Shown: piece after piece, positions 3,463 to 41,575 of the stretch | Layout: the number at the start of each line of letters is the position of its first letter | Numbering within the stretch: position 1 is the first letter of the stretch | Program-made: the position numbers and the translations under genes | The notes under the pieces: model-generated | Seen by the model: only the letters and a program-made list of their open reading frames with translations | Told to the model about the DNA's origin: nothing | Database searches by the model: none | Source: a virus | Lineage: Duplodnaviria; Caudoviricetes | Reading direction: 5' to 3' (one strand) | DNA length: 64,000 bases | IMG/VR virus record: IMGVR_UViG_3300010050_000018 | Coordinates: 2,723-66,722 of that record

Positions 3463-4332
3463 CTACTCGCCCTCCTTTGCCTTCGAGGCGAGAACGCGAA
3501 TACGTTTCGCGCGTGCTCGGCAATGGTTGGCCATGCCGGGGTCGCGAATGCGATTGTATTCTTGCGCGTCTTCATCAAGCATCGCTGCCGCTTCACCTAG
3601 ACCGCTCCGGCGGCCCGCCTCGAAGGCAACAACTGTGCGGTTCTTGCCGCTCTCCTCCGTCTTCGTTGGGCTTGTGGCGGGGAGCGCAGAGACGGCAGCA
3701 TTGAGGCGGGCCTGCGCGGCAAGGACGCGCTTTACCCAGACGCGCGCTTGATCCTTCTCGAAGTCCTCAGGCGCTGAGACAGGCGTAGGAGCGGGGTGGG
3801 CTAGCGCAGACCGGATCACGCGCTCATAGTGCGCCTCTACAGCGGCCATCCCGGCTTCAACGTCAGCCACTTCATGGTGGACGCCATCAGGGCCCATCCA
3901 TGCTGGCGGCAGCGGCCCGGACACAGTGGCCTCAGCTTGGCAATCCGAGAACCTCCCCAGCACGGTGTCCGTTACCCTTACGATAAGCTGCTTCTGCCAC
4001 ATCGTCAGAAGAGCTGACTTCTTCCACTCCAGCGCCTTGATAGTCGGCTCTGCTGCCGGCGCCGGCGCCAGCCGATCGCGGCAGATGTCCGTCTCGATCT
4101 CGCCGATCCAGCGGCCGCAAATCTGGCAGTTGTCGGCGCCCTTGGCGTTGGGGCCGTCACCGGTGAACTGGTGCATTGAAGGCCGCGCGTCCCCCTCGAC
4201 GAACTTCGACTTCAGGATATTGCCGCTTGCATCGACAATCATCTCGGCCGCGTCCCATCCAGCGCGCGAGCCGCGAAGCCTGCCCTTCTGCGCATATTCA
4301 GCGGTCTCGTCAGGCGTAAGAACGATCAGCAT
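3463..4332 (-). CDS. Phage hypothetical protein (mosaic)
   Basis: Long ORF in operon, start at MLIVLTP overlapping upstream stop; CQIC motif. Confidence 0.65.
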   Translation of the reverse strand: MLIVLTPDETAEYAQKGRLRGSRAGWDAAEMIVDASGNILKSKFVEGDARPSMHQFTGDGPNAKGADNCQICGRWIGEIETDICRDRLAPAPAAEPTIKALEWKKSALLTMWQKQLIVRVTDTVLGRFSDCQAEATVSGPLPPAWMGPDGVHHEVADVEAGMAAVEAHYERVIRSALAHPAPTPVSAPEDFEKDQARVWVKRVLAAQARLNAAVSALPATSPTKTEESGKNRTVVAFEAGRRSGLGEAAAMLDEDAQEYNRIRDPGMANHCRARAKRIRVLASKAKEGE

Positions 4333-4598
4333 TTCGTGGTTCCTCCGACCATTTCGGCGACGCAAGCGTTCCAGCCGTCGTTCCAGTTCTTGCGCCAAGA
4401 CGTCGCGAAGGGATCGTCAACCGGCTTCGGGGCCGGGATTGTTGCCGCCGGCCGCGCCGCCTCAGCGTCGCGGAGACGCAGGAGCACCCGCTCAACGATA
4501 TCGCGGTCGAACGAGGGGAAAGCGAAAGCGGAAAGCCGGCGCTCGAGCTCGTCGAGGTCGGCATCCGTCGCCGGCGTCACGCCTTCGCGAGCGAGCAT
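4326..4598 (-). CDS. Hypothetical protein
   Basis: MLAREGVTP...GWNACVAEM; preceded by GAGGAGGGGG RBS. Confidence 0.6.
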   Translation of the reverse strand: MLAREGVTPATDADLDELERRLSAFAFPSFDRDIVERVLLRLRDAEAARPAATIPAPKPVDDPFATSWRKNWNDGWNACVAEMVGGTTKC

Positions 4599-4993
4599 GA
4601 GACCCCCCTCCTCTGCAGCGCGTTCAAAATGCTGGTGTGGTCGCGGCCGTCGAAGATCCTGGCCAGGCCGTGCAAGCTCAGATGCGGGTGGACCAGCTTG
4701 ACGGCCACGACGGCGTCGAAACGAGCCTCGACGACGTGCTGGCGCCTCGACCTCGACATGATCTCGGCAACGGTGACGAGGTGCCAGGCCGCGACGCGTT
4801 CGATGATCTCGCGTGCCGGCGTCTTTGGCCCCGGCCTCGGGATGTTGGCGAGCCGGCTGTAGATTTGCCAGTCCCGTCTCGCATCGGCGAGCAGCTTGGC
4901 CGCCGCCCTCTCCCGGAGACGATCGAGCTCGGCCAGCGCCCATGCGCGCGAGATATCGCGCTGAATCTTGGATATCGGCGTGTGCAGCATCAC
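4577..4993 (-). CDS. Stand-alone DnaA domain IV (Bac_DnaA_C-like) HTH protein
   Basis: IIERVAAWHLVTVAEIMSRSRRQHVVEARF...LSLHGLARIFDGRDHTSILNA closely parallels the DnaA C-terminal GGRDHTTVLHA region. Confidence 0.85.
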   Translation of the reverse strand: MMLHTPISKIQRDISRAWALAELDRLRERAAAKLLADARRDWQIYSRLANIPRPGPKTPAREIIERVAAWHLVTVAEIMSRSRRQHVVEARFDAVVAVKLVHPHLSLHGLARIFDGRDHTSILNALQRRGVSCSLAKA

Positions 4994-5571
4994 CCACCTA
5001 TCTCTTTGAGGGCTTCCGCCCTGGCTTGATTGAGTTCAGCCATCGCGGCGTCGGTGCCGCCGGCGTCGGGGTGCGCCTTTCGAGCCAGATCCTTCCAGGC
5101 CTGATCAACCATCGTCTTTGAAGGCAGTTGAATGTCATGAAAGCCAAAGACTTCACGCCATGAGCGCTTACGCTTTCCTGCCGGCGGCAACGCAAGAAAC
5201 CCGGTGAAGGTCGCCCTGACCAAGGCGAGCGTTCCGTGCCTGAGTTCGGTGCGGCGCGCCTCGATGATGTGATGGATCGCCTGCAGGTTCGCTTCGACGG
5301 TCTGGTATCGGTCGACGGGAATGCAGACCTGCATTCCGTCCCAGGTGAACCAGACAGCGACGCCAGGATCCTCGGGGCGCATCATCCCGAGCGTCACATT
5401 CGAAGACATCACCAACCCGCTGACGGCTTTTCCGCTGTCCTTTGCGAAGGCGGAGATTGAACTCGATACGTTGTAGAGCGCGCCGGTGAGCTGAGTCTTG
5501 AACTGCCCCTTCTCGCGCGCCTTCGAACGCGGGATATTGTCGGGCCAGGTCAGCGGATAGGCTGCGGTCAC
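4990..5571 (-). CDS. Phage J-domain (DnaJ-like) protein
   Basis: C-terminal WKDLARKAHPDAGG...MAELNQARAEAL with HPD motif; N-terminal AYPLTWP...DPGVAVWF domain. Confidence 0.88.
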   Translation of the reverse strand: MTAAYPLTWPDNIPRSKAREKGQFKTQLTGALYNVSSSISAFAKDSGKAVSGLVMSSNVTLGMMRPEDPGVAVWFTWDGMQVCIPVDRYQTVEANLQAIHHIIEARRTELRHGTLALVRATFTGFLALPPAGKRKRSWREVFGFHDIQLPSKTMVDQAWKDLARKAHPDAGGTDAAMAELNQARAEALKEIGG

Positions 5572-15502: not shown

Positions 15503-15531
15503 AGACTTTCCCAAAACGGGGAAGTCGTCAA
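15503..15531 (-). promoter_or_regulatory. Putative PL promoter TTGACG-N17-AAGTCT with operator TTCCCAAAACGGGGAA (15508-15523) in spacer
   Basis: Same architecture as PR; directly upstream of the first leftward gene. Confidence 0.7.
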
Positions 15532-15540
15532 GTCCTTCAG

Positions 15541-15556
15541 TTCCCATTATGGGGAA
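15541..15556. promoter_or_regulatory. Repressor operator TTCCCATTATGGGGAA
   Basis: Semi-palindrome, 15/16 identical to operator at 16621. Confidence 0.8.
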
Positions 15557-15611
15557 TATTTTTTTGGGCGCCTTTCCCGGTCGGGAAGCATGCGCTCGCG
15601 CGGAAGTGCTA

Positions 15612-15772
15612 GTCCTGATTCGTAGAGCGCTGCAGCAGTGGGTGCGAAAGCACCCACACTGAGAAGCAGCGGGACACAGATTCGGTGAAAGGTTGAGCTC
15701 GACGAGAATCGTAGAACGAGACTTGAGAGGTCTAAACGTAGAGCTCTATGTTAGAAGTTTATACTCACCGGG
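15612..15772 (+). ncRNA. Candidate structured non-coding RNA between PL and cI 3' end
   Basis: Nested helices, GAAA tetraloop, G-U pair and A-rich loops favouring the + strand; no convincing ORF. Confidence 0.4.
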
Positions 15773-15825
15773 CGCGTGCGTGAGGGCGCGCGGTTAGACC
15801 GCACGCCCCGCCGAAGTCAATGCGC

Positions 15826-16560
15826 TCACAGATGAATTTTTTGACCCTCGTCGAGATCAAAAATCGCCTTGCCGAAGAGACTGTATGACCCGGTCACATA
15901 GGCGATGATTCTGATCTCCTCGCCCTCGACGATACCGTCCTTGGGGATGACGATCGGCTTGTGGTGCGGGTTGGTCGACTCCGGCACCAGGGCGATGCCA
16001 CCAGGTTCTTCCCAGTATCGCTTGATCGTTCGTTCCCGCTCCTGGCCGTCGAACCGCATACGCTCGACCACGACGATATCGCCGGTTTCAATGGGCCTGT
16101 AGTGCTCGACGAAATCCACATAGTCGACGCCGACAGCAAACATCCCGTCATGGATGCCGGCCTTGTTCATGGAATCCCCGAGGACCTGCCAGACATACTG
16201 GCGGGCGCGGCGGTACCGCGGATCCGGCGATATCGCCACAGCCTGCGGCTCATGGTTGGCATGCAGCTCGACGTCGACGAAGACACCTGCCTGCGTTGTG
16301 CCGGCGTAAGGGAGAAATCCAGCGCTATCCGGCACCGACTGCGGGGCATCCCCATCCGATGACCACTCCTCGTCATCGGCGATGACAAACTGCACCGGAA
16401 CCCCGAATGCGCGCGATGCTCGAAGGATGTAGTCCTCGTTGAGGCGCCTCTCACCGCGCTCGAGCTTGATGTACTGGCCGCGCGAAATGCTCATCGCAGC
16501 AGCGGCGTCATCATGCGTCATCCCTTTGGATTCGCGGATTCTTTTGAGTTGATTACCCAT
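15826..16560 (-). CDS. cI: CI-like repressor, XRE HTH plus S24 peptidase
   Basis: LKRIRESKGMTHDDAAAAMSISRGQYIKLERGERR; AG site in TTQAGV; GDSM (Ser) and TIKR (Lys) dyad; start may be up to 16617. Confidence 0.93.
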   Translation of the reverse strand: MGNQLKRIRESKGMTHDDAAAAMSISRGQYIKLERGERRLNEDYILRASRAFGVPVQFVIADDEEWSSDGDAPQSVPDSAGFLPYAGTTQAGVFVDVELHANHEPQAVAISPDPRYRRARQYVWQVLGDSMNKAGIHDGMFAVGVDYVDFVEHYRPIETGDIVVVERMRFDGQERERTIKRYWEEPGGIALVPESTNPHHKPIVIPKDGIVEGEEIRIIAYVTGSYSLFGKAIFDLDEGQKIHL

Positions 16561-16568
16561 AACGGGAT
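16553..16568. promoter_or_regulatory. Degenerate operator overlapping cI start codon
   Basis: Reverse complement ATCCCGTTATGGGTAA matches TTCCCATTATGGGGAA at 13/16. Confidence 0.55.
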
Positions 16569-16610
16569 TTCTATCACGCACCGCTGCCGCGAACATTCCC
16601 CAAAATCCGC

Positions 16611-16640
16611 TTGACAATCTTTCCCATAATGGGGAAGTCT
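16611..16640 (+). promoter_or_regulatory. Putative PR promoter TTGACA-N18-AAGTCT with operator TTCCCATAATGGGGAA (16621-16636) in spacer
   Basis: Directly upstream of cro ATG with no RBS, implying leaderless mRNA. Confidence 0.75.
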
Positions 16641-16647
16641 AGCGGCC

Positions 16648-16866
16648 ATGAAACTTTCAGATTTCATCGAGCAGAATGGTTTGACCCACGAACAGATGGC
16701 CGAACGTGTCGGCGATTGCTCGGTGTCTGGCCTTCGAAAATGGCTTCGCGGCGAACGCGTGCCCAGGCCTGATCAGATGAGAAAGATTGCTGAAATCACG
16801 AACGGGCAGGTCAGCCCGAACGACTTCTATGGTTTCACGTCCCCTGCGCCTGAGGCTGCCGAATGA
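16648..16866 (+). CDS. cro: Cro-like HTH repressor
   Basis: Divergent from cI; LTHEQMAERVG...SVSGLRKWLRGERVPRPDQMRKIAEITNGQV. Confidence 0.9.
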   Translation: MKLSDFIEQNGLTHEQMAERVGDCSVSGLRKWLRGERVPRPDQMRKIAEITNGQVSPNDFYGFTSPAPEAAE

Positions 16867-17231: not shown

Positions 17232-17726
17232 ATGTTCGGTTCGGACCTCTCGGAAACGTCTTCGCAGCGCTCAGAAAGATTTTCGGAGCTCTCCGAAAAT
17301 CGGTCAAGCGCTGGCAGCCAGGGCGGTCGTCAAATGTCTAGCGCGTCGATCGCCCATGGCCTGACCGTTGAGATCGGCGAGATCGTCGCGCCCGGCGCGA
17401 ACTGGAAAGCCCAGATCACTGCGGTTTACGCTGGCCTGACAGATCCGAAATTTCCGCATCGGCTAACTGATCTGACTTGGAACCGCGTGAAATCGTGGTT
17501 CTATGGCGAGGCGCGGCGGGCCGACTATCATGAAGTACTCGCGCTGCAGGAACTGCGCGCGATCGAGGAGGCCAGACGTGCCAAGCTTAAACTCGCCGCC
17601 ACGGCGAACATTCTGGCAGCTCATCTTGCCGCGGAGGGCGCGCCGCTGGATGGCCACCAAATGCGTGCTCTGGGCCGACTCGCTGGCGCATTGGATCTAT
17701 CCGGAACTGGCGGAGACGCCAGATGA
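17232..17726 (+). CDS. Putative CII-position transcriptional regulator
   Basis: GGAG RBS; LTWNRVKSWFYGEARR HTH-like segment; position after cro. Confidence 0.6.
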   Translation: MFGSDLSETSSQRSERFSELSENRSSAGSQGGRQMSSASIAHGLTVEIGEIVAPGANWKAQITAVYAGLTDPKFPHRLTDLTWNRVKSWFYGEARRADYHEVLALQELRAIEEARRAKLKLAATANILAAHLAAEGAPLDGHQMRALGRLAGALDLSGTGGDAR

Positions 17727-18574
17727 GCGCCTCGAAGCCATGGCTGGCGATGACGCCGGAGCAGCGGATCTCGGAGGTCCGTCTTCTCCTTGAACAGGGC
17801 CACGCCCCCGGCACCATAGCCTGGAAACTCAGGGCACGACCATCGGCGATAACCAGTGTCGTCCGGGCAATCCGGAAAGCCGACGGCGCACCTCACGTAG
17901 AAGTCTCCCCACCTGCCATACCTGATGCCCCACTCCGGTGGGAGGTGCTCACCAGTGAGGAACGCGACGCGGCCGTGCTGGCGCTGCGCGCCGAGGGCCT
18001 TTCCGCATCCCAGGTAGCGGACCGGCTGGCGACGACACGAAATGCCATCGTCGGCTACATGCACCGGATGACGGAAGCCGGCGTCGACGTCCCGGGCCGC
18101 AAATCTCCGAAACGCTCGCGCGCCGCCAAGGCGCCGGTTCCGCCGAAGATGGCGAGGCAAGCAGTTGCTCCGAAGCAGGCTCCAAAACGCGACAAGGTCT
18201 TGCGCAAGAGCGCCGCCGGCAGCGTCGAAGTTGCCCCGATGCGCGGCCCCAACAATCCTCACCCATTCGATTTCAAGGCGCGCGCCGAGCAGCGCGCGTC
18301 ATCACCCGGCCTGGCCCCTGCGCTCATCGCCGGGGTCCCGATGCGCCCCGTCGACGATGATACCGCGCCTGAATCCAAACGCCTCGCCCTGGTCGAGCTC
18401 ACTGCCACGACCTGTAGATGGCCGAGCGGTGACCCACGGGCCGAAGACTTCGGTTTCTGTGGCCACGACGTCTCCGACTCCCCGTACTGCCCTTACCACA
18501 AGCGCCTTGCCCACGAGCCCCCCACAACACGCCAGCGCGCCGAGATCCGCTCGGCTGAAAGGAAGTTCGCATGA
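17723..18574 (+). CDS. gcrA: GcrA-family cell-cycle regulator
   Basis: EGLSASQVADRLATTRNAIVGYMHR (GcrA N-terminal HTH) and LVELTATTCRWPSGDP...FGFCG...PYCPYH (GcrA C-domain). Confidence 0.9.
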   Translation: MSASKPWLAMTPEQRISEVRLLLEQGHAPGTIAWKLRARPSAITSVVRAIRKADGAPHVEVSPPAIPDAPLRWEVLTSEERDAAVLALRAEGLSASQVADRLATTRNAIVGYMHRMTEAGVDVPGRKSPKRSRAAKAPVPPKMARQAVAPKQAPKRDKVLRKSAAGSVEVAPMRGPNNPHPFDFKARAEQRASSPGLAPALIAGVPMRPVDDDTAPESKRLALVELTATTCRWPSGDPRAEDFGFCGHDVSDSPYCPYHKRLAHEPPTTRQRAEIRSAERKFA

Positions 18575-19089
18575 CCGTTCATGAGCGTCCCAACCGCGCC
18601 TCGGCCAAAGAAGCTGCCTCTTTCGTCGAAGAGTTCGATCGCCTCGAGCAGGTTCGCGAGGAAAAGCTCCGGCTCCTCGAAGCCGACTTCAAGACGAAGA
18701 AGCGTGCGATCCAGAAAGAGGTCGACGGCGACCAGGCCGTGCTGCTCGCCGATGCGAAAAAGCAGGGCGTCAACAAGGGCGTCATCCGAGCGCTGACCGA
18801 CGCCCAGAAGATCAAGCGTAAGGCCGAGGCGATGCTGGAGCGCGCCGAGGGCAAGGTCGACGGCCTCGATGACGACGACCGCGAATTCGCCGTCGACATC
18901 CGCACCGCCCTTGGCGACGACTTCGCCGGCTTCGGCCTCGGCGCCGCTGCCGTGGCTCGTGAAGAACCCACCCAGGAACCCAACAAGCCCGACGCCACGA
19001 CGGCCGCCGTGATCGCGGCCGTCAAGGAGAACATGACCGACAGGGATTGGGACAACGCCGCACCGGCGGCCGAAACCGTCGAGGCCTGA
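18571..19089 (+). CDS. Putative GapR/DUF2312-like DNA-binding protein
   Basis: SFVEEFDRLE...LADAKKQGVNKGVIRAL resembles GapR SIIERVERLE...YAEAKGNGFDVKVLKK with an inserted coil. Confidence 0.5.
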   Translation: MTVHERPNRASAKEAASFVEEFDRLEQVREEKLRLLEADFKTKKRAIQKEVDGDQAVLLADAKKQGVNKGVIRALTDAQKIKRKAEAMLERAEGKVDGLDDDDREFAVDIRTALGDDFAGFGLGAAAVAREEPTQEPNKPDATTAAVIAAVKENMTDRDWDNAAPAAETVEA

Positions 19090-19141
19090 AACTACCTGAC
19101 CAGGCCGGGAAAGTAGCGGCCAAACCTATTCAGAGGCAAAC

Positions 19142-19795
19142 ATGACCGCACCGCGCATTCTTGCAATCGATGCCGCAGCCCATTTCGGCTGGGCGTATGG
19201 TCCCATCGGCTCGATCCCGAAATCGGGTGCCCAGTACTTCGCGAAATCTGGCGCCGGCGCCAGCTACCCGAACGTCATGCTGGGAGCGTTGCGCTGGACG
19301 ACAGATTTCATCACCGCTTACCCGGTCGACTGCCTGTTCGTCGAACGCGCACTTCTAGACGGCGCCGTCGATAACTCAAACTACAAGACATCCGAGATGA
19401 AAAACGGCCTGATCGCCGTGATCATCGCAACAGCTCGGCTGCTTGGCGTCAGGAATCAAATCGTCGTCATCGACGGCGTACGCGGTGAGCATCGGATCTA
19501 CCTGTCAACGATCCGGTCCAAATTCCTCCCGAAGAAACCGAAAGGTGTCGAGCCGAAGCCGCTGGTCCGCCAGAAGTGCATTGATCTGGGCTGGATCAGC
19601 CAGGAGGACGCCCTCGCCGACAAGGGCTTCGACCGCACCGATGGCTTGGCGATCTGGTACTGCGGCTGTCTCCTGGTCGATCCCATGAAAGCCCCGCCGG
19701 TCGACCCGCTTTTCCTCGCCGCTGCCCGTCGGCAGCGCGAAGCCGAGGAGTTCGCTCAACGCAACGCGAAACCAGCGATCCCGGAGCGCTTCTGA
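19142..19795 (+). CDS. RuvC-like Holliday junction resolvase
   Basis: RILAIDA..FGWAYG, LFVER, FDRTDGLAIW acidic RNase H-fold motifs; ends AIPERF. Confidence 0.75.
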   Translation: MTAPRILAIDAAAHFGWAYGPIGSIPKSGAQYFAKSGAGASYPNVMLGALRWTTDFITAYPVDCLFVERALLDGAVDNSNYKTSEMKNGLIAVIIATARLLGVRNQIVVIDGVRGEHRIYLSTIRSKFLPKKPKGVEPKPLVRQKCIDLGWISQEDALADKGFDRTDGLAIWYCGCLLVDPMKAPPVDPLFLAAARRQREAEEFAQRNAKPAIPERF

Positions 19796-19797
19796 TG
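19774..19797 (+). repeat. 24-bp repeat copy 2 (AGCGATCCCGGAGCGCTTCTGATG)
   Basis: Exact inverted copy of 8320-8343. Confidence 0.9.
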
Positions 19798-19914
19798 CAG
19801 ATCCGAGTCCCTCATTCCGTCAGCGACGCCCTCGCCTTCATCGTGCTCGTCGCGGCTGTTGCCCTGATCATCGGGGTCATCACCGGCATCATCGTGCCAG
19901 TGGAGCCACGATAG
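19795..19914 (+). CDS. 39-aa single-pass membrane protein
   Basis: Manual translation MQIRVPHSVSDALAFIVLVAAVALIIGVITGIIVPVEPR; TGATG coupling. Confidence 0.6.
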   Translation: MQIRVPHSVSDALAFIVLVAAVALIIGVITGIIVPVEPR

Positions 19915-19915
19915 G

Positions 19916-20659
19916 ATGCGCGCTGTCGTCGCCGGGGATCGTCTCCCATTCAATGAAATTGTGACGTCGTGGCTGTCGCAGTGCCAGGCCAACGTCGGCA
20001 TCGCCGGCAGTCCCGAAGAGCTCGCGGCGGCAACCCGGGCTGATCCGCAGCGCATCGCGGTGATCTGGTCCGAAGACGGATACCGGGCGGTGTCATCGAT
20101 CCGGCGGCTCCGCGACGCCGCAATCGGCAATCTCATCATGGTGATGATGCCGGCGCAGCGCGATGACCTCGCCGCCAATGCGAAACACCGCGCCGTCGCG
20201 CTGCGCGCCGGCGCCGATGATGCGCAGACCTGGCCGCTGGCCGAGCACGAGTTCATCGAGCGATGCCGCGCTTTGCTGCGCCGGGACCGCCAAATCCTCG
20301 CCGATGACAGCGTGGTCAGGTTCGCGGGCTGCGAGTTCCTGCCCGAGCTCAAGATGCTCCGGTCTCGGGCAGGCATGATCTCGCTGACGCCCCTCGAAAC
20401 CGCGTACATGCTCGCGCTGACCCGGCATGACGATCGGGTCATCACCACCAAGTCGCTGTCGATCGACGTCTATGGATGGCAGCATGAGGAGATATCGAAC
20501 AGCCTCGTGAAGGTGTTCGTCCACCGTCTCCGAAAGCAGGTTTTCACGCTGACCGGCGGTCTCGACTTCGTCGAAACGGTCTGGGGTCGCGGATACAGGT
20601 TCGTTCGCGAAGGCTACCGCCCGAAGTTCGATCACTGGGGCCGGAGGGCGGTGGGATGA
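19916..20659 (+). CDS. OmpR-family regulator, CtrA-like, with degenerate receiver domain
   Basis: LRAGADD; KVFVHRLRKQVFTLTGGLDFVETVWGRGY resembles the CtrA C-terminus; phosphoacceptor Asp and conserved Lys not evident. Confidence 0.85.
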   Translation: MRAVVAGDRLPFNEIVTSWLSQCQANVGIAGSPEELAAATRADPQRIAVIWSEDGYRAVSSIRRLRDAAIGNLIMVMMPAQRDDLAANAKHRAVALRAGADDAQTWPLAEHEFIERCRALLRRDRQILADDSVVRFAGCEFLPELKMLRSRAGMISLTPLETAYMLALTRHDDRVITTKSLSIDVYGWQHEEISNSLVKVFVHRLRKQVFTLTGGLDFVETVWGRGYRFVREGYRPKFDHWGRRAVG

Positions 20660-21120
20660 ACGACCGGCCAATCCGGGACATCTTAGCTGAGTGCATCCGT
20701 TTCGAGCGGCTGGGGCCAATATCTCCGCTCTGGGGAAACTGGTGGGAAGAAGGCAGGGAACCGGTTCGAAAACGAGCCGATCAAATCCTGAGGCTTCTCG
20801 CCGAACGCGGCGTCGAGCTGGTGAGAACCGGCGAACCGGCCGCTGCGACCCGACACGACAGTCCTGAATTCTGGCGATGCAAGATCATGGGTCGGAACGC
20901 GGAGCGCATCCTCCGCGCCACGGCCGCCGGCATCGAGGTCGTCATGGCAGAGGACGGCAAGGAAACCGTCCAGCTCGCATTCGCGATCGGCGAGGCCCAC
21001 GCATTGTCGGGGCGTGGGCTCATCGGGGACCGCGAGCTCATGAAGGAACCCGGCGTCGTCACCAAGCTGGCGGCGACGCTGGAGGCCTACCGCGTCAACG
21101 TCATAGACCTGGTGGGCTAG
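20656..21120 (+). CDS. Hypothetical protein
   Basis: Coupled ORF. Confidence 0.7.
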   Translation: MNDRPIRDILAECIRFERLGPISPLWGNWWEEGREPVRKRADQILRLLAERGVELVRTGEPAAATRHDSPEFWRCKIMGRNAERILRATAAGIEVVMAEDGKETVQLAFAIGEAHALSGRGLIGDRELMKEPGVVTKLAATLEAYRVNVIDLVG

Positions 21121-21122
21121 CC

Positions 21123-21920
21123 ATGGGCCACGTCAAAAAGCACCCATGGGCCGGCATGAAGGGACCGACCGCCGACTTCCTGAAGCTGGTCGATGGTCTC
21201 GCCCGGAGCCGATCCCATCGCGAGGTCTTCCACGATTTCCTGGAGGCCGCGTTCTGCGCCTTCATTTCTCCGCTGATACCTGCCGGCGACAAGCGCGATG
21301 ATATCGAGGCCCGATATCTCAAGGTCATCAACTCCGACAAGGAGTATCCGGCGCGTTTCCCCGAGCTGCTCGCGATCGCCGCCGCCGGCATCGATGAGGA
21401 ATACGATTTCCTTGGCCCTGTCGCCGGCCACCTCGGATCACTGAACGCTGCACAGGGTCAGTTCTTCACTCCGTGGGAACTATCCCGCTCGATGGCGGCG
21501 ATGATCATCGATGAGGACGGGATCAAGCGGGCGATCGAGAAGAACGGCTTCATCACGATGCTGGAGCCCGCGATTGGTGCCGGCGCCATGGCCCTTGCGG
21601 CTGCGGAGCGGGTACGGGAGCTCGGGTTCGATCCCGGTATCCATCTCTGGCTTACCGGCATCGACGTCTCGCTGCCTTGCGTCAAGATGGCGTACTTGCA
21701 GCTCACCCTTCGCGGGGTCGCCGCTGATGTCGTCCACGGCAACGGGCTCTCGCTGGAGCAATGGGGACGGTATCCGACGCGTTCCCGTTTCCTGTTTGCA
21801 CAGCATCACGGCGAGCGGCTCCAAGCTTACGTCGACAATCCCGCGAACTACCTGCAGCCCGCTGCGCCAGCGGCGAAGCCTGCACCTCCGCAACTCGATC
21901 TCTTCGGGGATGCGGCATGA
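21123..21920 (+). CDS. N-6 DNA methylase-like protein (type I M-subunit-related, short)
   Basis: GQFFTPWELS, MLEPAIGAGAM (motif I), GIDV...MAYLQL...HGNGL; ends QLDLFGDAA. Confidence 0.85.
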   Translation: MGHVKKHPWAGMKGPTADFLKLVDGLARSRSHREVFHDFLEAAFCAFISPLIPAGDKRDDIEARYLKVINSDKEYPARFPELLAIAAAGIDEEYDFLGPVAGHLGSLNAAQGQFFTPWELSRSMAAMIIDEDGIKRAIEKNGFITMLEPAIGAGAMALAAAERVRELGFDPGIHLWLTGIDVSLPCVKMAYLQLTLRGVAADVVHGNGLSLEQWGRYPTRSRFLFAQHHGERLQAYVDNPANYLQPAAPAAKPAPPQLDLFGDAA

Positions 21921-22114
21921 CCGACCGTTCCGCCACCACAACCAATCTACTGGTCGCGATGCTGCGGATCACCGCCGGCCGCCTCAGGGCCGGCGCCAGC
22001 GACCAGTTCACCGAGATCTGTCCGGGCGCCCTCGACCAGGTCGCCAGGGCCTCGATTGAAAGCGGTCGCGACAGCCGGAACCTCACCGCCACTCGGGATC
22101 AGAAAGGAACCTGA
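21917..22114 (+). CDS. Small hypothetical protein
   Basis: ATGA-coupled ORF. Confidence 0.55.
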   Translation: MTDRSATTTNLLVAMLRITAGRLRAGASDQFTEICPGALDQVARASIESGRDSRNLTATRDQKGT

Positions 22115-22115
22115 G

Positions 22116-24074
22116 ATGTTGAATGCCGAAGTCAGAGAAACCTCCGAGCGACCGATCAGCCGCGCTTTTGGCGTCGTGTTTCCGAAACCAGATCAGATCG
22201 CGAAGCTGTCCCCGGCTGATCAGATGGTGGCTAAGCTGCTCGCCGAAGAGTCGGGGGTGCCCTCTCCGGTCAAGACGGTGCGCGGCGAGCCCGCGCAGCA
22301 TGTCGACGATAGGATAGTCTCGATCGAAACCTCGGCACCGGTTCGTCCCCTCGGCGCGGGCGATATCGAGATCGGAAGTACCTCGAAGGCCGAACCTGTT
22401 GGCATCGACCTCGCCAAGCTGATCGACGGCCGTTTGTTGATCCAGGGCAATAGCGGCGCCGGCAAATCCATGTTGCTGCGTCGCCTCTTCGAGCAGGCGT
22501 TTGGCCGTGTTCAGCAGTTGCTGCTGGATCCCGACGGCGAATTCTCGACGCTGAAGGAACACTTCGACGTCGCAGTTCTTACCGCCGCCGATGTGCGACG
22601 GATCGGTGGCCACGCCTTCGCCACTCATCTTCGCCAGCACAGGTACAGCGCTGTGCTCGATCTCTCCGATGCGACTCCGGAAGATCGTCTCGATCTCGTC
22701 GCCGACATTGCCGAAGGATTGCTGGTGGTGCCTGAGGCGCATTGGCACCCGCTTCTTGTCCTCATCGACGAAGCCCAGACCGTGGCGCCACACTACGACA
22801 CCGGCGACGTCACCGCCGATACCCGAAAGCGCTCCACCGCGATGCTCTCGGATCTCATGGGCCGGGGCCGCAAACGTGGCATCGCCGGCATCATCGCGAC
22901 GCAGCGTATCGCCGAAACCGCCAAGGCGGTGGTGTCGAAGGCGACCAACGTTGTTGTCGGCCGCACGATCTTCGACCGAGATCTCGAGCGCGCGGGCTCG
23001 CTGCTCGGTTTCACCTTGGGACACAGCCGGGCACTGCGCACTCTCTCAGACGGCGAATTCCTGGCCATTGGTCCCGCCATCGCGGGACCGCGTCGCATCA
23101 GGTTCAAGGCGGGGCCGGTCCAGTCCAGGCATAAGGGTGCAGCACCCGAGGTAATCGCACCGCCGACGATCTCGGCTGCTGCTGCTGCTGCCCTGTTGTT
23201 GCAGGTGCCTGATGCCCGACAGCCCGACCAAGCCGCGCCGCAGCAGGTAACCGGCAAGCCTGGTGCCCATGGCAGGGGATGGTCCGAGGCCGACGATGCC
23301 TTGATCCGTGACGGATACGCAAAAGGGCTCAAGCTTGGTGAAATCGCGGAACAGCTCGTCGCCAACGGCAGTCCAGTTCGATCCCTCGGTGCGATATCGG
23401 TGCGCGGCGCCACCTTGGGCATCAAGAATAGCCGCGCCGTCGCGGACTGGACCGACGCCGAATACCAGTTCGTGCTCGACGGCTATGAAGCCGGGACATC
23501 GATATCTGGCATCCGACAAAGCCTCGTAGCGGCCGGGTTCGACCGCTCCTTCGGCGCCATACAGATGGCGGCGATCAAACTCGGGATATCGGGGTCCCGG
23601 GTCAATTTCTGGACCGAAGAGGAAACTCAAATCGGCCTCGACGGTCTTGCTGCTGGCAAGACACACTCCGAGATCCTCGCCGACTTGAAGGCCGCTGGGT
23701 ACATCCGTGGCCCCACGGCCATGGCGAAATTCGCGAAGAAACATGGGGTCCATCGCAAGCACCGAGAGTTCTCGGATGAAGATCTCGACATCATCCGCAC
23801 GATGTTTGGCCAGGGGCAGTCGCATGGCGAAATCGCTGAACGGCTGGACCGCACCAGAGCGTCTATCGCCAGCCAGGCCTGCAAGATGGGCCTCAAGCAC
23901 CGCCGGCCTTGGACCGAAGAAGAGCGGCAGGTGCTCGTCGATCATCAGGCGCAAGGCCTCACATTGAAATCTGCCGCCGAGGCCATTGGCAGGCCCTACG
24001 TCAATGTCTCCGCCGAGGCCGGGCGCCTGAACCTCTCCTTCAGAAGACCATCAACCGAAAGGACACCCACATGA
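22116..24074 (+). CDS. HerA/DUF87-like ATPase fused to five C-terminal Myb/GcrA-N-like HTH repeats
   Basis: GNSGAGKS (Walker A), LDPDGEF, LIDEAQ (Walker B), GRGRKRGI...ATQR; W[ST]xxE repeats. Confidence 0.85.
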   Translation: MLNAEVRETSERPISRAFGVVFPKPDQIAKLSPADQMVAKLLAEESGVPSPVKTVRGEPAQHVDDRIVSIETSAPVRPLGAGDIEIGSTSKAEPVGIDLAKLIDGRLLIQGNSGAGKSMLLRRLFEQAFGRVQQLLLDPDGEFSTLKEHFDVAVLTAADVRRIGGHAFATHLRQHRYSAVLDLSDATPEDRLDLVADIAEGLLVVPEAHWHPLLVLIDEAQTVAPHYDTGDVTADTRKRSTAMLSDLMGRGRKRGIAGIIATQRIAETAKAVVSKATNVVVGRTIFDRDLERAGSLLGFTLGHSRALRTLSDGEFLAIGPAIAGPRRIRFKAGPVQSRHKGAAPEVIAPPTISAAAAAALLLQVPDARQPDQAAPQQVTGKPGAHGRGWSEADDALIRDGYAKGLKLGEIAEQLVANGSPVRSLGAISVRGATLGIKNSRAVADWTDAEYQFVLDGYEAGTSISGIRQSLVAAGFDRSFGAIQMAAIKLGISGSRVNFWTEEETQIGLDGLAAGKTHSEILADLKAAGYIRGPTAMAKFAKKHGVHRKHREFSDEDLDIIRTMFGQGQSHGEIAERLDRTRASIASQACKMGLKHRRPWTEEERQVLVDHQAQGLTLKSAAEAIGRPYVNVSAEAGRLNLSFRRPSTERTPT

Positions 24075-25903
24075 CCTCTCGCATGATCCCACTCAACGAA
24101 CTCAGGTTCGGGCACGAAGCCGATCCGCCGCTCAATGCCAGGCGCGTCGGTCGCGGCGAAGATATCGAGGAACTCGCGGCCTCGATCGCCGCCCATGGGC
24201 TTATCACCCCGCCCAAGGTCAAGGAGATCGACAGGACGTTCTATGTCGCCATCGGCAACCGCCGCCTCGCCGCGCTGCGGCTGCTCGTCGAGCAGAACCA
24301 TCTCGCCGAGGACTGGGAGGTCCCATGCGACGAGTTCGAAGGCGTCGACGATCCCCGCGAGATCGCACTCGCCGAACAGATAAACCGGGCGCCGCTGCAC
24401 GAAGCCGACGAGATCGAGGAGTTCAGCGCACTTACCGCCGCCGGCTTATCTGAGGCCTCCATCGCGAAGCGCTTCGGCATCACGCCTCAGCGGGTCAAGA
24501 GGATCCTTGCCCTCGGTGGGCTCGCACCCGTCATCCTGCAGGCTTGGCGCGATGGTGTCTTCACCCGCGATGCGGCCAACTGTATCCGCGCCTTTACCTT
24601 GGCCCCCTCGATCGAGGCCCAGGAGGCGACGTTCAACAAGCTGAAGAAGATCGGCCATCTGGATTCTTACTCGATCCGCCAAGCGTTCGGGGCCGACAAT
24701 CGTGAAGCCGCGAAGGCTATCAAGATCGCGGGGGTCGAAGCTTACAAGGCCGCCGGCGGCACGATGACAACCGACCTCTTCGGCGACAACCATGTCATCG
24801 ACAATCCCGAGATCGCGGCGAAGGTCGCCAAGGAGAAGGTAGATTCAACCTTCGCAGGGCTGAAGGCTGAAGGATGGTCCTGGGTCTCGATGGCCTCCGA
24901 CCTCCCCTATTCCTGGTCCTACTCTTGGGCCACTGAGAAGCCTGCCGAGGGTAAGGCGACTGCCGACGAGAAAAAGCAGATCAAGAAGTTGGAGAAGGGT
25001 GTCGCCAAGGGGACCGACGGCGCCGCCGACGAACTGGCGACGCTGCAGAAAACTATCGCAGACCGGCAGTGGACCCCGGAACAGCTCGCCAAGGCCGGCG
25101 CCGTTCTCAATATTGGTCACTACGGTGATCTCGAGATCAGTCGGGGGGTCGTCAAGCCCAATTCGGCAAAGCCGACAACCGGCGCCGGCTCCGGCGACAA
25201 AAAGGAGAAAGCGGCCCCAACGATCTCAAATGCTTTGGCGACGCGGCTGTCCGCGCAGGCCGGCTTGGCAACCCGCAAGGCCCTGCAGTCCGAACCGCGG
25301 CTCGGGCTCGTCGCCCTGCTCGCCGGCTTCCTGACGAAAGGCGACGTATACAGCAACGCCAGGACCTGCCCGATACATGTCAGTCACGCCGGCATGGGGC
25401 ACCAGCAGTTGCGCGGCACCGAGAACTTCGCCGATGCACTGGCCCGGCTGCAGGCGATGTCCGACGCCGAACTGTTCATTGTCGCCGCAGGCATCGCCGG
25501 CAACGCCATCAGCCTGCATGTCTCAACGGCTGATTACCGCGCGTTCGACGGCGCCCCTCGGGCACTGGTTGCCGCGATCGATGCTGACACGATGACGGCG
25601 GCTCTTCATGAGACGTTCGACGCCGCCGAGTACTTTGCCGGGGTCTCGAAGACTTTCATCATTGACGCGATCCGTGAGGCCCTCAACAAGGACGAGGCGC
25701 GCAAGGCCGACAAGCTAAAGAAGGCCGAGCTCGTCGCCTTCGCCGTCGAGAACATCAAGGGCACCGGCTGGTTGCCGCCGGAGCTCCGGGCACCAACCTA
25801 TTCCGGTCCTGGCCAGATCCCCGCCGCCACAATCGCTGCACCGCCGCTCGATCCTGACGACGATGACCTCGAAGAAGATGTCGACGAGGACGAGGCCGCT
25901 TGA
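24071..25903 (+). CDS. ParB/RepB/Spo0J-family protein (large form)
   Basis: LNARR...IEELAASIAAHGLITP...AIGNRRLAAL; LAEQINRAPLHEADE; HTH IAKRFG. Confidence 0.88.
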   Translation: MTSRMIPLNELRFGHEADPPLNARRVGRGEDIEELAASIAAHGLITPPKVKEIDRTFYVAIGNRRLAALRLLVEQNHLAEDWEVPCDEFEGVDDPREIALAEQINRAPLHEADEIEEFSALTAAGLSEASIAKRFGITPQRVKRILALGGLAPVILQAWRDGVFTRDAANCIRAFTLAPSIEAQEATFNKLKKIGHLDSYSIRQAFGADNREAAKAIKIAGVEAYKAAGGTMTTDLFGDNHVIDNPEIAAKVAKEKVDSTFAGLKAEGWSWVSMASDLPYSWSYSWATEKPAEGKATADEKKQIKKLEKGVAKGTDGAADELATLQKTIADRQWTPEQLAKAGAVLNIGHYGDLEISRGVVKPNSAKPTTGAGSGDKKEKAAPTISNALATRLSAQAGLATRKALQSEPRLGLVALLAGFLTKGDVYSNARTCPIHVSHAGMGHQQLRGTENFADALARLQAMSDAELFIVAAGIAGNAISLHVSTADYRAFDGAPRALVAAIDADTMTAALHETFDAAEYFAGVSKTFIIDAIREALNKDEARKADKLKKAELVAFAVENIKGTGWLPPELRAPTYSGPGQIPAATIAAPPLDPDDDDLEEDVDEDEAA

Positions 25904-28871: not shown

Positions 28872-30175
28872 ACGACGTCCCAGTGTTCATGGAACCATTC
28901 GAGGCCTTCGAGGCCGCGACCACAACATTCCTGACCCCACCGTTCCGATCCAGGTTCGGGCTGATCCGGTGGGAGGACCAGGACAAGCCATCGGAGCGAA
29001 CCTACGAGTTCCAGATCGCCGGACTGATCCCACGCCGCGAAACCGTGCTGTGGTTCGGAGAAAGCCAGTCCGGCAAATCGTTCAGCGCCTTCGACTGTGG
29101 GATCCATGTGGCCTCGGGCATGGAGTATCAGGGCCGCCGGACCCGGCGCGGCGGCGTGATCTACTGCTTCATCGAAAAGGGGCATGGTGCGAAAAACCGC
29201 ATGCAGGCGTTCCGCCAGCACTACGACCTCCCGCTCGACGGGTTCCCATTTGCGGTTCTGACCAGACGGATCGACATCTTCTCGTCGGAAGAAACCGTCG
29301 ACGTCCTCGCCGCCGAATGCGAGGAGATCGCCAAGGGCTGGAATGTCCCCCTCGATGTCATCGTCATCGACACCCATGATAAAGCGACCCCGGGCGCCTC
29401 CGAGATCGACAAGAAGGACGTCTCGACCGTCCTGGCCCGATACGAGCGGCTGCGGGACCGCTCCAAGGCTGCGGTATGGGTCATCGGCCACTCGAATTCG
29501 TTCGGTTCGGCACGCGGTTCCCTCGTCCTCTACAACGCCATCGAGACCGTGATCTCGATATCGGTGCTCAGGGACAAAGCCCTCGGCGAGTTCCGCGACG
29601 CCAACCAGCGGGTGATCCGCCAGGCCAAGGTCTTGAAGCAGTCCGAGGGCGAAGCCGGGCAGACCTGGAAATTCGTGCTGCCCGCGATCGAGGTCGGCCG
29701 CAACGAATACGGGGAACCGGTGACGTCATGCGTGGTGACTCCGCCGGCGGATGTCGAAGGCGACGAGCAAATCTCCAGAGGCTTCAAGGCATCGCCCGGT
29801 GACTCAGTCTTCCTCAAGGCGCTGATCAAAGCGCTCGCCGAACACGGCGAGGCGCCGTCGCCATTGCTGGCGTTGCCACCCTCGATCATCCGTGTCGTCG
29901 ACTACGCCAAGGTGAAGGAGGCCTTCAAATCCCTGAACCCCGATGACGGCAACGACGTCATCAAATGGAAGGAGCGACTGAAGACGGCCCTCAAACGTGC
30001 CCGCGAACGCCTCCTCGACCACAACATCATCGGGATCTCGAGCCCGCACATCTGGATCACTGGTCGGCCGGTTCGCGGCATCATCAGGCCGAGGGACAAC
30101 GGGACCGACTTCGATCGTTCCGAACCATCCGCCGGGCTCCTCGAAGCGCTGGAAAGCAGCGGGGATGTCCTGTGA
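28868..30175 (+). CDS. AAA_25/RepA-like replicative helicase
   Basis: GESQSGKS, IVIDT, VIGHS, RGSLVL, KQSEG. Confidence 0.9.
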   Translation: MNDVPVFMEPFEAFEAATTTFLTPPFRSRFGLIRWEDQDKPSERTYEFQIAGLIPRRETVLWFGESQSGKSFSAFDCGIHVASGMEYQGRRTRRGGVIYCFIEKGHGAKNRMQAFRQHYDLPLDGFPFAVLTRRIDIFSSEETVDVLAAECEEIAKGWNVPLDVIVIDTHDKATPGASEIDKKDVSTVLARYERLRDRSKAAVWVIGHSNSFGSARGSLVLYNAIETVISISVLRDKALGEFRDANQRVIRQAKVLKQSEGEAGQTWKFVLPAIEVGRNEYGEPVTSCVVTPPADVEGDEQISRGFKASPGDSVFLKALIKALAEHGEAPSPLLALPPSIIRVVDYAKVKEAFKSLNPDDGNDVIKWKERLKTALKRARERLLDHNIIGISSPHIWITGRPVRGIIRPRDNGTDFDRSEPSAGLLEALESSGDVL

Positions 30176-30335
30176 CGATGTCCCTTTTGGTGTCCGCGAT
30201 GTCCCCCCGGCCCGAAATGGCGCAAACCGTTGCGTCACAAGGTGTCGAGCGCTTTCTGGCATCGGTGCCGGGTACATGGGCCAAAGTGGATTTGTCCCCT
30301 TTTGTACCCCGGATGTCCCCCTTGTTGTCCCCCCT
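30166..30335 (+). repeat. Cluster A of about 8 TGT(C/A)CC(CC) repeats; candidate replication origin iterons
   Basis: Copies at 30166, 30179, 30191, 30200, 30293, 30303, 30314, 30326, right after the helicase. Confidence 0.6.
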
Positions 30336-31601: not shown

Positions 31602-31925
31602 TCAGCCAGGCCCGCCGCCACCCCAATCAGTGGGCGGCCAGTCCTTGATCAACGCGCCGAGACCACCGCCCAAGATTGAATTCGGCTTGTGGTGCAGCGG
31701 ACGAAGATTGTGGATTTCGTCGCTTCCACCGATTGCCTTGGGAATAATGTGGTCTTCTTCCCAGCCATAGATAGATGCCCGGTCGCCGTAGCGATCCCAG
31801 CAGATGCGATAGCCGAAGCAATCGCGCCGCCAAGTGCGGGGATCTTCGCCAGGGATGACATGACCCTTGGCCCAGACGGTGAGCCGCTTGAGAAGGTCTG
31901 GCAGATTAAGTTCGTTGGTATGCAT
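31602..31925 (-). CDS. HNH endonuclease moron
   Basis: GWEEDHIIPKAIGGSDEIHNLRPLHHKPN; AAGGA RBS; antisense; lower GC. Confidence 0.8.
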   Translation of the reverse strand: MHTNELNLPDLLKRLTVWAKGHVIPGEDPRTWRRDCFGYRICWDRYGDRASIYGWEEDHIIPKAIGGSDEIHNLRPLHHKPNSILGGGLGALIKDWPPTDWGGGGPG

Positions 31926-32304
31926 AGTAAGGGGTCCTTTTGGACAAAGTGTCCTCCTGGGTTGCCCGGCATCGAACCCTGCGCTACCGTCTCCGTTGCA
32001 AAGGGAGGATTGGTTTGCGCCAGTCTTCGATACCAAAAACGATCCCAAGAAGATCGCTATGGTTGTGTAGAAGGCCCGGCCTTGGGTGGTGGAACACCCT
32101 CGGTTCGGGCCTTTGTGATTCGATCATTCGAACCGCAACTGAAATCGTAACAGCAATCGCGTCGGAGACGAGGCGGCCAACGTAAACGTGACCGTTCTCC
32201 ACACTCCTCCCCTCTCCGTCCACAGGGGCGCGAGCAGTCCCGACGATTTGGCCTTGCGCGCCATCGAATCATCTCGGCCCGTCAAGAGAAACTGTCGGTT
32301 CTGA

Positions 32305-32414
32305 GGGGGGACACGGTCGCGCCGGTGCGATGTCCCCTGTCGGGGCGATCCCATTGGAGTCGTTGGACCCAAGGGGGTACACGCCGGGGGGACAGAGGGG
32401 GACAAAAGGGGACA
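32305..32414 (-). repeat. Cluster B of GGGG(G)ACA repeats (inverted relative to cluster A)
   Basis: GACA/TACA units ending at 32313, 32381, 32394, 32404, 32414; plus TGTCCCC at 32331. Confidence 0.6.
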
Positions 32415-32551
32415 GGCCCCACCTGTCACAATTCGTGATTTCCAGAAACCGTTGGAATTCAGCACCTTATCGCGGCTCCCTCCCCTCGCGTAGACGCTGA
32501 GTTCTGATCTCTGTTCGCCCTCCGGCGGGCGGCCCATCAGGCCGACCCCGG

Positions 32552-32580
32552 CTGAAGTGCTCTACGATCAAAGGTATACG
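32552..32580 (+). promoter_or_regulatory. Candidate late promoter CTGAAG-N17-TATACG
   Basis: Spacing puts the start site at or near the HNH ATG (32589), which lacks an RBS. Confidence 0.35.
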
Positions 32581-32588
32581 CTGGCACA

Positions 32589-32918
32589 ATGGCAAAGCTC
32601 CTCGGGCCGTCGATCCGAACGATCGACGTCCGCATCGCCCTACCTCCAGTCAAGAAGGTCGATCCCGAACTGCGCACCGCTGCGCATCAGGCCTGGCGTC
32701 GTGCCGTCCTGGAGCGTGCCGGGTATCGATGTGAAGGCACCACCTATGGCCAGCGCTGCGCTGTCGTCGCCCCTGCCCGTCTCTTCGCTGACCACATCAA
32801 GGAGCGTAAGGACGGCGGCGCCCTCCACGATGTCACCAACGGGCAGTGTCTCTGCGGCCACCACCACACCTTGAAGACGGTGGCAGCCCGAGCCGATCGG
32901 ATGAAGGAACGATACTGA
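32589..32918 (+). CDS. Terminase-associated HNH endonuclease
   Basis: WRRAVLERAGYRCE...C...ADHIKERKDGG...NGQCLCGHHHTLKT. Confidence 0.9.
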   Translation: MAKLLGPSIRTIDVRIALPPVKKVDPELRTAAHQAWRRAVLERAGYRCEGTTYGQRCAVVAPARLFADHIKERKDGGALHDVTNGQCLCGHHHTLKTVAARADRMKERY

Positions 32919-41571: not shown

Positions 41572-41575
41572 GGCG

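Follow-up and report, generated by a model that had tools for sequence, protein, structure and literature searches.

The DNA considered here is a stretch of 64,000 nucleotides (the window), corresponding to bases 2723-66722 of a 66.7-kb IMG/VR provirus (IMGVR_UViG_3300010050_000018) that CheckV rates as complete. Its rightward (PR) early operon holds the block of three genes that is the subject of this work, all on the + strand, encoding a GcrA paralogue of 283 amino acids (aa; 17723-18574), a GapR-derived protein of 172 aa (18571-19089) and an OmpR/PhoB-type regulator of 247 aa with a pseudo-receiver (19916-20659). An earlier note, made from the sequence alone, had read these genes, together with a stand-alone DnaA domain IV of 138 aa encoded on the - strand of the leftward early operon (4577-4993), as deregulated mimics of the alphaproteobacterial cell-cycle circuit, expressed on induction either to lock the host in a chosen state or to time the phage's own programme. 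All four genes do lie at these positions and belong to the families named, at different depths, as seen from Pfam, hhalign and tree evidence. The boundaries of the open reading frames (ORFs) come from GC3 (GC at third codon positions) support and the reading of start codons, and the families from Pfam. Homologues of the provirus's genes are found in Aminobacter, Mesorhizobium and related Hyphomicrobiales, and the phage lineage is that of ~60-kb, temperate, lambdoid-organised Aminobacter/Mesorhizobium prophages of the Phyllobacteriaceae; in all comparisons with the host, the hosts of related prophages serve as proxies for the provirus's own.

The PR operon starts with cro, a second helix-turn-helix (HTH) gene and an ORF, continues with the genes for GcrA, the GapR-like protein, an ORF, the regulator and another ORF, and ends with a methyltransferase-like fragment, an ATPase of HerA type that carries HTHs at its C-terminus, and genes for a ParB-like protein, a primase and an AAA_25 helicase; next come the late genes (HNH, both terminase subunits, small and large, then portal, capsid and others). 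Read from this gene order, the block lies in the delayed-early part of the operon.

The first protein of the block scores 95.8 bits on PF07750 (cutoff 26.9), covers positions 4-154 of the 155 of that model, and matches the PDB structures of Caulobacter GcrA (7ye1, E 5e-19; the sigma70-interacting domain 5yix, E 7e-12; the DNA-binding domain (DBD) 5yiu, E 8e-4). Just like the GcrA of Caulobacter and rhizobia, it keeps the HTH at the N-terminus as well as the domain at the C-terminus that interacts with sigma70. That GcrA is a sigma70 cofactor at promoters with CcrM-methylated GANTC sites, according to Haakonsen et al. (2015) as related in PMC9437464. In an alignment whose host rows are proteins of one related genome (G003), the HTH and the Cys/His-rich sigma70-binding motifs of the phage protein are conserved, whereas its overall identity to M. 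loti GcrA is only 32%, it carries ~75 extra aa at the N-terminus, ahead of the GcrA HTH, and the linker between HTH and sigma70-binding domain has a lineage-specific motif of its own, RG(P/A)NNP.P.DFKARAEQRA.SPG. Since it reaches only 71.5 bits on the NCBIfam equivalog NF050816, below the cutoff of 280, and since phage copies score 44-113 bits on PF07750 against 196-201 bits for host copies, it is a clear paralogue and no host-type orthologue.

GapR (DUF2312/UPF0335; PF10073) is the alphaproteobacterial nucleoid clamp for overtwisted DNA, and the relation of the second protein of the block to it is a distant one. PF10073 gives no match to this protein even at E<10, nor any in a six-frame search of the provirus, whilst genuine host GapRs score 116-129 bits; a single-sequence PDB search returned noise only, and a Foldseek search of the structural model against the PDB found nothing. 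The family tells more than the single sequence: weak PF10073 matches occur in 13 of 29 homologues, a profile of the family reaches the chains of GapR crystal structures in the PDB at marginal E-values, and hhalign against genuine GapRs (20-26 sequences from Hyphomicrobiales genomes) gives probabilities of 94.4% and 94.0% (E 8.5e-8 and 1.5e-7), in a match that spans residues 4-64 of GapR and in which helix 1 of the phage protein is interrupted by 19 inserted residues. The AlphaFold2 (AF2) monomer model, with a predicted local distance difference test (pLDDT) value of 80, shows one helix of 53 residues that is joined to a second by a turn at KKQG, and in a comparison with 48,161 PDB representatives C. 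crescentus GapR (6jyk) ranks first with 77 of 77 residues aligned, at a Z of 6.6 tied with generic coiled coils. 'GapR-like', as the earlier note had called this protein, holds as remote homology, with a score below the curated PF10073 threshold. Both proteins share the helix1-turn-helix2 core, with the motifs ...F(I/V)E..(D/E)RLE... and ...AK..G....(I/M)R, but the phage protein, at 172 aa, has double the length of GapR (about 86-90 aa), its C-terminal half after the alpha1-alpha2 core being distinct from GapR and conserved (ALGDDFAGFGLGAAAV).

In this it also differs from the GapR of Erythrobacter phages, reported in R34L1 as an auxiliary gene and called a first (PMC12185513), which is canonical. 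At least 570 stretches of IMG/VR viral contigs encode a canonical GapR as well, some of which may be host genes at provirus edges; canonical GapR is common in viral contigs, against the label of 'first' in that 2025 paper.

The third protein scores 44.9 bits on Trans_reg_C (PF00486) and aligns from end to end with OmpR/PhoB regulators (in an alignment with MtrA and with NCBIfam models, all far below their cutoffs). Its AF2 model, a confident one (pLDDT 86), comprises a complete (beta-alpha)5 receiver and a winged helix, for which Foldseek finds KdpE, MtrA and PrrA at E about 1e-12, and atypical phosphorylation-independent regulators of the OmpR family amongst the matches. It is, then, a member of the OmpR/PhoB family, with receiver fold and winged helix. 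In all 12 aligned members of its own family, the receiver has lost the acidic pair, the acceptor Asp (replaced by Ile/Trp), the Thr (by Pro) and the Lys (by Trp), and the alpha4-beta5-alpha5 region, which forms the dimer face, is invariant. With these residues gone, it is a pseudo-receiver that can no longer be phosphorylated, and in that sense the word 'deregulated' suits the regulator. Helicobacter HP1043 (PDB 2hqr), RitR and GlnR, atypical OmpR/PhoB regulators, likewise join a folded receiver without functional phosphorylation pocket to a winged helix; they are, however, chromosomal and from unrelated bacteria, whereas the phage regulator is phage-borne, apparently CtrA-derived and linked to GcrA.

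Its relation to CtrA had to be revised. Plain membership, as in the 'CtrA-like' of the earlier note, was rejected: the 56-57 bits of the regulator on the CtrA equivalog NF045991 are far from the cutoff of 350, and in an A. niigataensis genome (G001), where the real CtrA scores 421 bits and ~20 other OmpR paralogues 80-180, the prophage copy with its 55.9 bits falls below every other full-length host OmpR paralogue. The family alignment and a tree of the DBD changed this first view, and because of them the label is replaced by that of a family whose DBD seems to be derived from CtrA and of which this copy has diverged. Most family members carry the CtrA-hallmark recognition region DEPxxKI(I/V)DVF(I/V)CKLRKK...ETVWGRGY, and the DBDs of most phage copies are 42-56% identical to that of CtrA, against 27-35% for the paralogues. 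In the maximum-likelihood tree (unrooted, with 10 OmpR paralogues taken from two genomes), CtrA and all phage copies are split from the 10 other host paralogues with a support of 99/97. The window's regulator matches the CtrA DBD at only 42 bits and falls within the phage clade, where it shares a very long branch with a twin from A. niigataensis that is 84% identical and likewise has an altered helix; its recognition helix has diverged from that of CtrA (NSLVKVFVHRLRKQV). Phage regulator and CtrA thus share the order of receiver and winged helix and, at the level of the family, the hallmark DBD; they differ in the lost phosphorylation residues, in the diverged helix and in the lack of CtrA boxes on the phage. 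Such boxes (TTAA-N7-TTAA or TTAACCAT, with at most one mismatch) number zero in the window, one of 12 records of relatives has one, and the CtrA half-site occurs twice on the phage DNA against 3.4 expected.

What ties the three genes together is their linkage. Using the GapR-like family, 26 loci were fetched (reference genomes supplied 12 and IMG/VR 14, some of them present in both sets), amongst which tblastn finds GcrA in 25, the GapR-like protein in 26 and the regulator in 24, at protein identities of 25-84% and in the same order and on the same strand in all loci. The co-occurrence that the earlier note had pointed to, in the PR early operon where it had placed it, is thus far beyond chance within one phage lineage. 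The core block persists whilst the immunity genes are exchanged in a mosaic fashion, given that synteny holds down to 25-45% identity and that cI is found in only six of the 26 loci.

Outside the lineage the pieces recur in part. When IMG/VR is searched with GcrA as the anchor, the full trio is seen in five of 69 loci, all of this lineage; the other 64 have a canonical GapR within a few kb in 5-6 cases, an OmpR-type match nearby in 4-5 and a weak DnaA-IV match nearby in six. Conversely, among the best 80 of the at least 570 canonical GapR stretches, 11 have a GcrA-type match within 10 kb, several of them directly adjacent. The OmpR-type matches outside the lineage lack a receiver and carry the CtrA hallmark helix; eight of the ten examined score better to CtrA than to other paralogues. 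The one in the viral contig IMGVR_UViG_3300043260_000093 (L176), which matches no other paralogue, is part of a fusion: a single ORF (4062-5504, - strand) combines tandem GcrA HTHs and a sigma70-binding region (68.9 bits on PF07750) with a winged helix like that of CtrA (34.2 bits on PF00486), its next gene (2818-4065, - strand) encoding a DNA methyltransferase with an NPPF motif, and a canonical GapR lying ~4 kb away. The linkage kept within the lineage, the adjacency and the fusion all speak for a joint action of GcrA-type and CtrA-type modules in alphaproteobacterial phages.

In the IMG/VR loci L105, L113, L124, L159 and L234, outside this lineage, receiver-less proteins of 114-228 aa with the CtrA-hallmark helix KIVDVFVCK(L/M)RKKL...TVWG.GY adjoin GcrA or GapR.

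The fourth gene of the earlier note, in turn, drops out of the set. The protein at 4577-4993 is a DnaA domain IV (PF08299, 42.2 bits against a cutoff of 31.5, residues 62-127) without domains I-III, which matches the DnaA model TIGR00362 in its C-terminal part alone (positions 347-414 of 437) and shares 39-40% identity with the domain IV of DnaA from hosts. Its gene is present in two Aminobacter prophages (G001 and G002) and absent from all three Mesorhizobium genomes tested; it is an optional accessory outside the conserved core. DnaA boxes (TTATCCACA, with at most one mismatch) are on the phage at chance level, three against 3.9 expected. In A. niigataensis (contig C9 of G001), the DnaA-IV gene of the prophage (52893-53297) is only ~11 kb from the host ctrA (41228-41899), so that this related prophage integrated close to the latter.

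As for the sites that a GcrA could read, GANTC occurs 81 times in the window, where base composition predicts 217 and dinucleotide composition 369, a 2.7-4.5-fold depletion, with a cluster of eight sites in the 1 kb at 15611-16611. TGATTCG, which the earlier note had singled out in the control regions, is depleted too, and its enrichment over the whole window was rejected (three copies against 14.9 expected). What stands of that claim is the location, all three copies being noncoding and in control regions (at 15616, and at 32116 and 32265), and the conservation of GANTC. Across 22 related loci, 16 of the 20 TGATTCG sites fall within the 2.6-kb immunity interval.

The first copy (15616-15622) is part of a conserved structured noncoding element of ~140 nt (15590-15730, + strand) between the stop codon of cI and the PL operators. 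Here it lies in GAWTCGTAG, accompanied by a hairpin (15640-15659), GGGACAC boxes and two more GANTC sites (15679 and 15706). A covariance model (R1) built from six copies finds the element in 14 loci of the lineage (E 1e-35 to 7e-5), with the + strand and the location shared by every copy, and Rfam has no family for it. The 8-bp hairpin is paired in 96% of cells, with double (compensatory) changes in five of the eight pairs; its covariation score is 0.305, against at most 0.109 in slid controls, and is reached by none of 500 shuffles. Wobble pairs favour the + strand, that is, antisense to cI. The CcrM site is invariant in 14 of 14 copies, as GA(T/A)TCG(T/A)(A/T)G, whilst the base preceding it varies; the conserved unit is GANTC within GAWTCGTAG and not TGATTCG.

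The other two copies, at 32116 (+) and 32265 (-), belong to a 19-nt inverted repeat in a noncoding control region of 540 bp (32049-32588), 5' of the HNH, small terminase, large terminase, portal and capsid genes, which also has a GAGTC at 32357 and GGGGACA repeats with a period of 10 bp (32388, 32398 and 32408). At least one YGAKTCK is found within 500 bp upstream of the late operon in nine of 10 members of the lineage, where ~0.15 are expected per locus. A leader-like sequence 5' of the late operon is conserved in this region (32430-32588) and in its equivalents in the loci L245-L253, and consists of CTCCCTCCCCTCGCGTAGACGCCAAGTYCTGAT, a hairpin and CGTAGAGCTCTACG. The possibility that this late leader is the immunity-region element was rejected: short blocks are shared, yet the covariance model finds no late region.

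The best reading of these results, to which we give about even odds (0.5), is that the block is a conserved early module coupling transcription and replication of the phage to the CcrM methylation of its host. On inactivation of the S24-type repressor, PR would transcribe cro through helicase, block included. The GcrA paralogue would most likely serve as an additional sigma70 cofactor, as inferred from the retained methyl-GANTC-reading HTH and sigma70-binding domain, and its most probable targets are the control regions of the phage itself, because GANTC, purged from the phage elsewhere, is retained and conserved across the lineage in the cI-PL interval and ahead of the late genes. No PF01555 methyltransferase match, as would be expected of a phage CcrM, is found in the provirus; as it has no CcrM of its own, the methylation of these sites would be set by the cell-cycle-restricted CcrM of the host and diluted by phage replication, which could make them a timer coupled to both replication and cell cycle. 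The GapR-derived protein, judging by its remote homology, is most likely a GapR-type DNA clamp that aids fast, primase/helicase-driven phage replication; further 3' in this operon are the genes for primase and helicase, in support of a role in replication. The regulator would be a phosphorylation-independent and probably constitutively dimeric winged-helix factor from a CtrA-type DBD, working with the GcrA paralogue at promoters, as linkage, the adjacency seen in other phages and the natural GcrA-CtrA-DBD fusion suggest. Effects on the host GcrA and CtrA regulons may occur, and would be secondary. Of the two purposes that the earlier note had considered, it is the timing of the phage's own programme that finds support in the sequence, as the sites lie on phage DNA.

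Several points weigh against this reading. Enrichment of GANTC in intergenic regions is a general alphaproteobacterial trait, and the GANTC near PL belongs to a covarying element, so that its conservation may reflect RNA or DNA structure and not binding by GcrA. The family members that keep a CtrA-like helix, without CtrA boxes on their own DNA, would fit host targets at least as well. The phage, moreover, has two inverted clusters of helically phased TGT(C/A)CCC repeats, the first directly 3' of the helicase gene (30166-30335) and the second ahead of the late operon (32305-32414), in positions conserved in the lineage, which are candidate replication origin iterons or regulator-binding arrays; the paired GGGGACA/TGTCCCC array is found in this phage and in one relative (G046) only. 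The regulator was rejected as the binder of these 10-bp-phased arrays, as near-identical TGT(C/A)CCC arrays occupy the same two positions in relatives with a CtrA-like helix. Since the arrays do not co-vary with the recognition helix of the regulator, their reading as origin iterons is at least as good; their position beside the primase and helicase genes fits origin iterons too, and the arrangement may resemble the ori/crr of phage P4. Finally, a survey of phage genomes of Alphaproteobacteria reported no positional signal for GcrA motifs (PMC9437464).

The main rival is that the block serves chiefly to take over the cell cycle of the host, which we regard as possible and clearly less probable. 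The regulator would then occupy host CtrA sites or poison CtrA dimers, the GcrA paralogue would turn on the S-phase regulon of the host, and the GapR-like protein and DnaA-IV would act on the replication of the host chromosome, the cell being held in a state favourable to phage DNA synthesis. All three proteins of the block do derive from cell-cycle or nucleoid factors of the host. Most members of the regulator family have the CtrA-hallmark helix in genomes that lack CtrA boxes, so that whatever CtrA-type sites these members bind would have to lie in the chromosome of the host, and a receiver that lost its phosphorylation residues and kept its dimer face fits action independent of signals, or heterodimerisation. 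The same idea was proposed for gp222 of phiCbK (PMC3556154), and phages of these hosts are known to read the host CtrA (PMC9437464). Set against this are the recognition helix of the window's own regulator, diverged from that of CtrA, the conserved GANTC sites on phage control DNA, and DnaA-IV, which is unconserved in the lineage and accompanied by DnaA boxes at chance level only; a locking of the host cycle finds no sequence support here. The block possibly overrides the host cell cycle all the same. A wider and somewhat more doubtful picture sees in the block a stand-in, carried by the phage and blind to signals, for part of the cell-cycle circuit of Alphaproteobacteria, in which a CtrA-derived regulator independent of the CckA-ChpT phosphorelay and a private GcrA, united in a single protein in one phage, would jointly redirect the sigma70 RNA polymerase on phage and host DNA alike, and a re-engineered GapR clamp would service replication, the host being kept in an S-phase-like state and the lysis programme reading the CcrM methylation clock.

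It is unlikely, in our estimation, that the conservation of GANTC and TGATTCG has nothing to do with the phage GcrA, being instead part of a structured RNA antisense to cI in the immunity switch, with the genes of the block acting elsewhere or independently. The strongly covarying hairpin, the + strand preference of its wobble pairs, the 14 loci recovered by the covariance model and the variable leading T of TGATTCG would all suit such an RNA. It would leave aside, however, that GANTC is invariant in every one of these copies whilst neighbouring loop positions vary, that two more GANTC sites recur in the same element, that YGAKTCK sites turn up again, independently, ahead of the late operon and that GcrA is retained in 25 of 26 loci. 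Least probable by far is that the genes of the block are unrelated accessory passengers from hosts, clustered by the shared ancestry of close prophages, for although all 26 loci belong to one phage lineage, the linkage survives 25-45% protein identity and the replacement of immunity genes (cI in 6/26), the distance to the host copies is large (GcrA 32% identical, GapR related by remote homology only), which marks the genes as old ones of the phage and no recent captures, and the adjacencies of GcrA with GapR and with the CtrA-type DBD, together with one fusion, recur in unrelated viral contigs.

Parts of this have precedents. A GcrA homologue, gp222, is encoded by phiCbK and its relatives and was proposed to alter the replicative state of the host (Gill et al. 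2012, PMC3556154); like the GcrA described here, it is a phage-encoded member of PF07750 with an alphaproteobacterial host. It is, however, a lone gene of virulent phages of 200-280 kb, whereas ours is the first gene of a block in the PR operon of a temperate phage whose switch regions contain conserved GANTC sites. GcrA, a UPF0335 protein and DnaA are each listed singly as cargo of Sinorhizobium phiLM21-like prophages (PMC12429752). The promoters of several phages of Alphaproteobacteria are controlled by the CtrA of the host, in what was termed 'lytic deferment' (Mascolo et al. 2022, PMC9437464); these phages of Caulobacterales and Hyphomicrobiales resemble the present one in tying their programme to the cell-cycle circuit of the host, and differ from it in having CtrA boxes read by host CtrA, where this one has no boxes and its own, apparently signal-blind, CtrA-derived regulator next to a GcrA.

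Single phage homologues of GcrA and GapR, and phages listening to host CtrA, are thus known already, whilst our searches of a literature library found no description of a phage-encoded CtrA-derived regulator or of this module. New here are the conserved syntenic block of a GcrA paralogue, a seemingly remodelled GapR and a putatively CtrA-derived regulator; a whole regulator family without phosphorylation pocket, which would amount to a natural 'constitutive' variant of the output domain of a master regulator; independent genomic evidence, from adjacency and fusion, for cooperation of GcrA-type and CtrA-type proteins in phages; and an invariant CcrM site inside a structured element of a lysis-lysogeny switch. 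Together they offer a direct way of studying how temperate rhizobial phages tie their induction, their replication and the timing of their transcription to the methylation and cell-cycle clock of the host, and natural separation-of-function variants for the study of GcrA, GapR and CtrA.

The surroundings of the block are those of a lambdoid phage. The cI-type repressor (15826-16562, - strand; HTH_3 and Peptidase_S24 in Pfam, phrog_4 in PHROG) likely starts at the ATG at 16562. The PL region (15503-15556), as read from the sequence, has a TTGAC -35 element on the minus strand and two operator palindromes of the form TTCCCC-N4-GGGGAA; the PR region (16611-16637, + strand) has a TTGACA -35 element overlapped by such a palindrome, and cro (HTH_3, 16648-16866) lies immediately 3' of it. 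Both regions, in other words, share a TTGAC(A) -35 element and the same overlapping palindrome. The leftward early operon encodes, besides DnaA-IV, a DUF5131 protein, two DnaQ-like exonucleases, a GIY-YIG protein and a YqaJ recombinase.

Three further conserved genes, all on the + strand, adjoin the members of the block. The one 5' of GcrA (17328-17726; longest ORF from 17124, with a weak match to phrog_26665) is found by tblastn synteny in 19 of the 26 loci, the ORF of 217 aa at 19142-19795 in 16, and the gene of 154 aa 3' of the regulator (20656-21120), without family match, in 22. Look-ups of the first and the last in a protein atlas returned clusters of phage hypothetical proteins only. 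The N-terminal motif of the ORF at 19142-19795 had led to the guess of a RuvC-like resolvase, which was rejected, there being no sequence match in Pfam, PHROG, NCBIfam or the PDB.

Downstream, the HerA/DUF87-like ATPase (22056-24074, + strand) matches Sigma70_r4 and the N-terminal HTH of GcrA in its C-terminal region (residues 572-616), being the second carrier of a GcrA-type HTH in the PR operon, and is followed 3' by a ParB_N-like protein (23909-25903). The ORF at 21123-21920 (+ strand), found in two of the 26 related loci, matches the N-terminal third of N6_Mtase alone (24 bits, profile positions 24-120), with the S-adenosylmethionine-binding motif present and the NPPF motif absent. A tRNA scan detected none, and no Rfam family was matched at gathering score. 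Two ORFs called as HNH from motif reading only, 31602-32048 (-) and 32589-32918 (+), diverge from the pre-late region, the one on the plus strand forming the head of the terminase operon. At the right end of the window, which it runs off, lies an ATP-dependent DNA ligase domain (63116-64000, - strand; PF01068, 103.7 bits).

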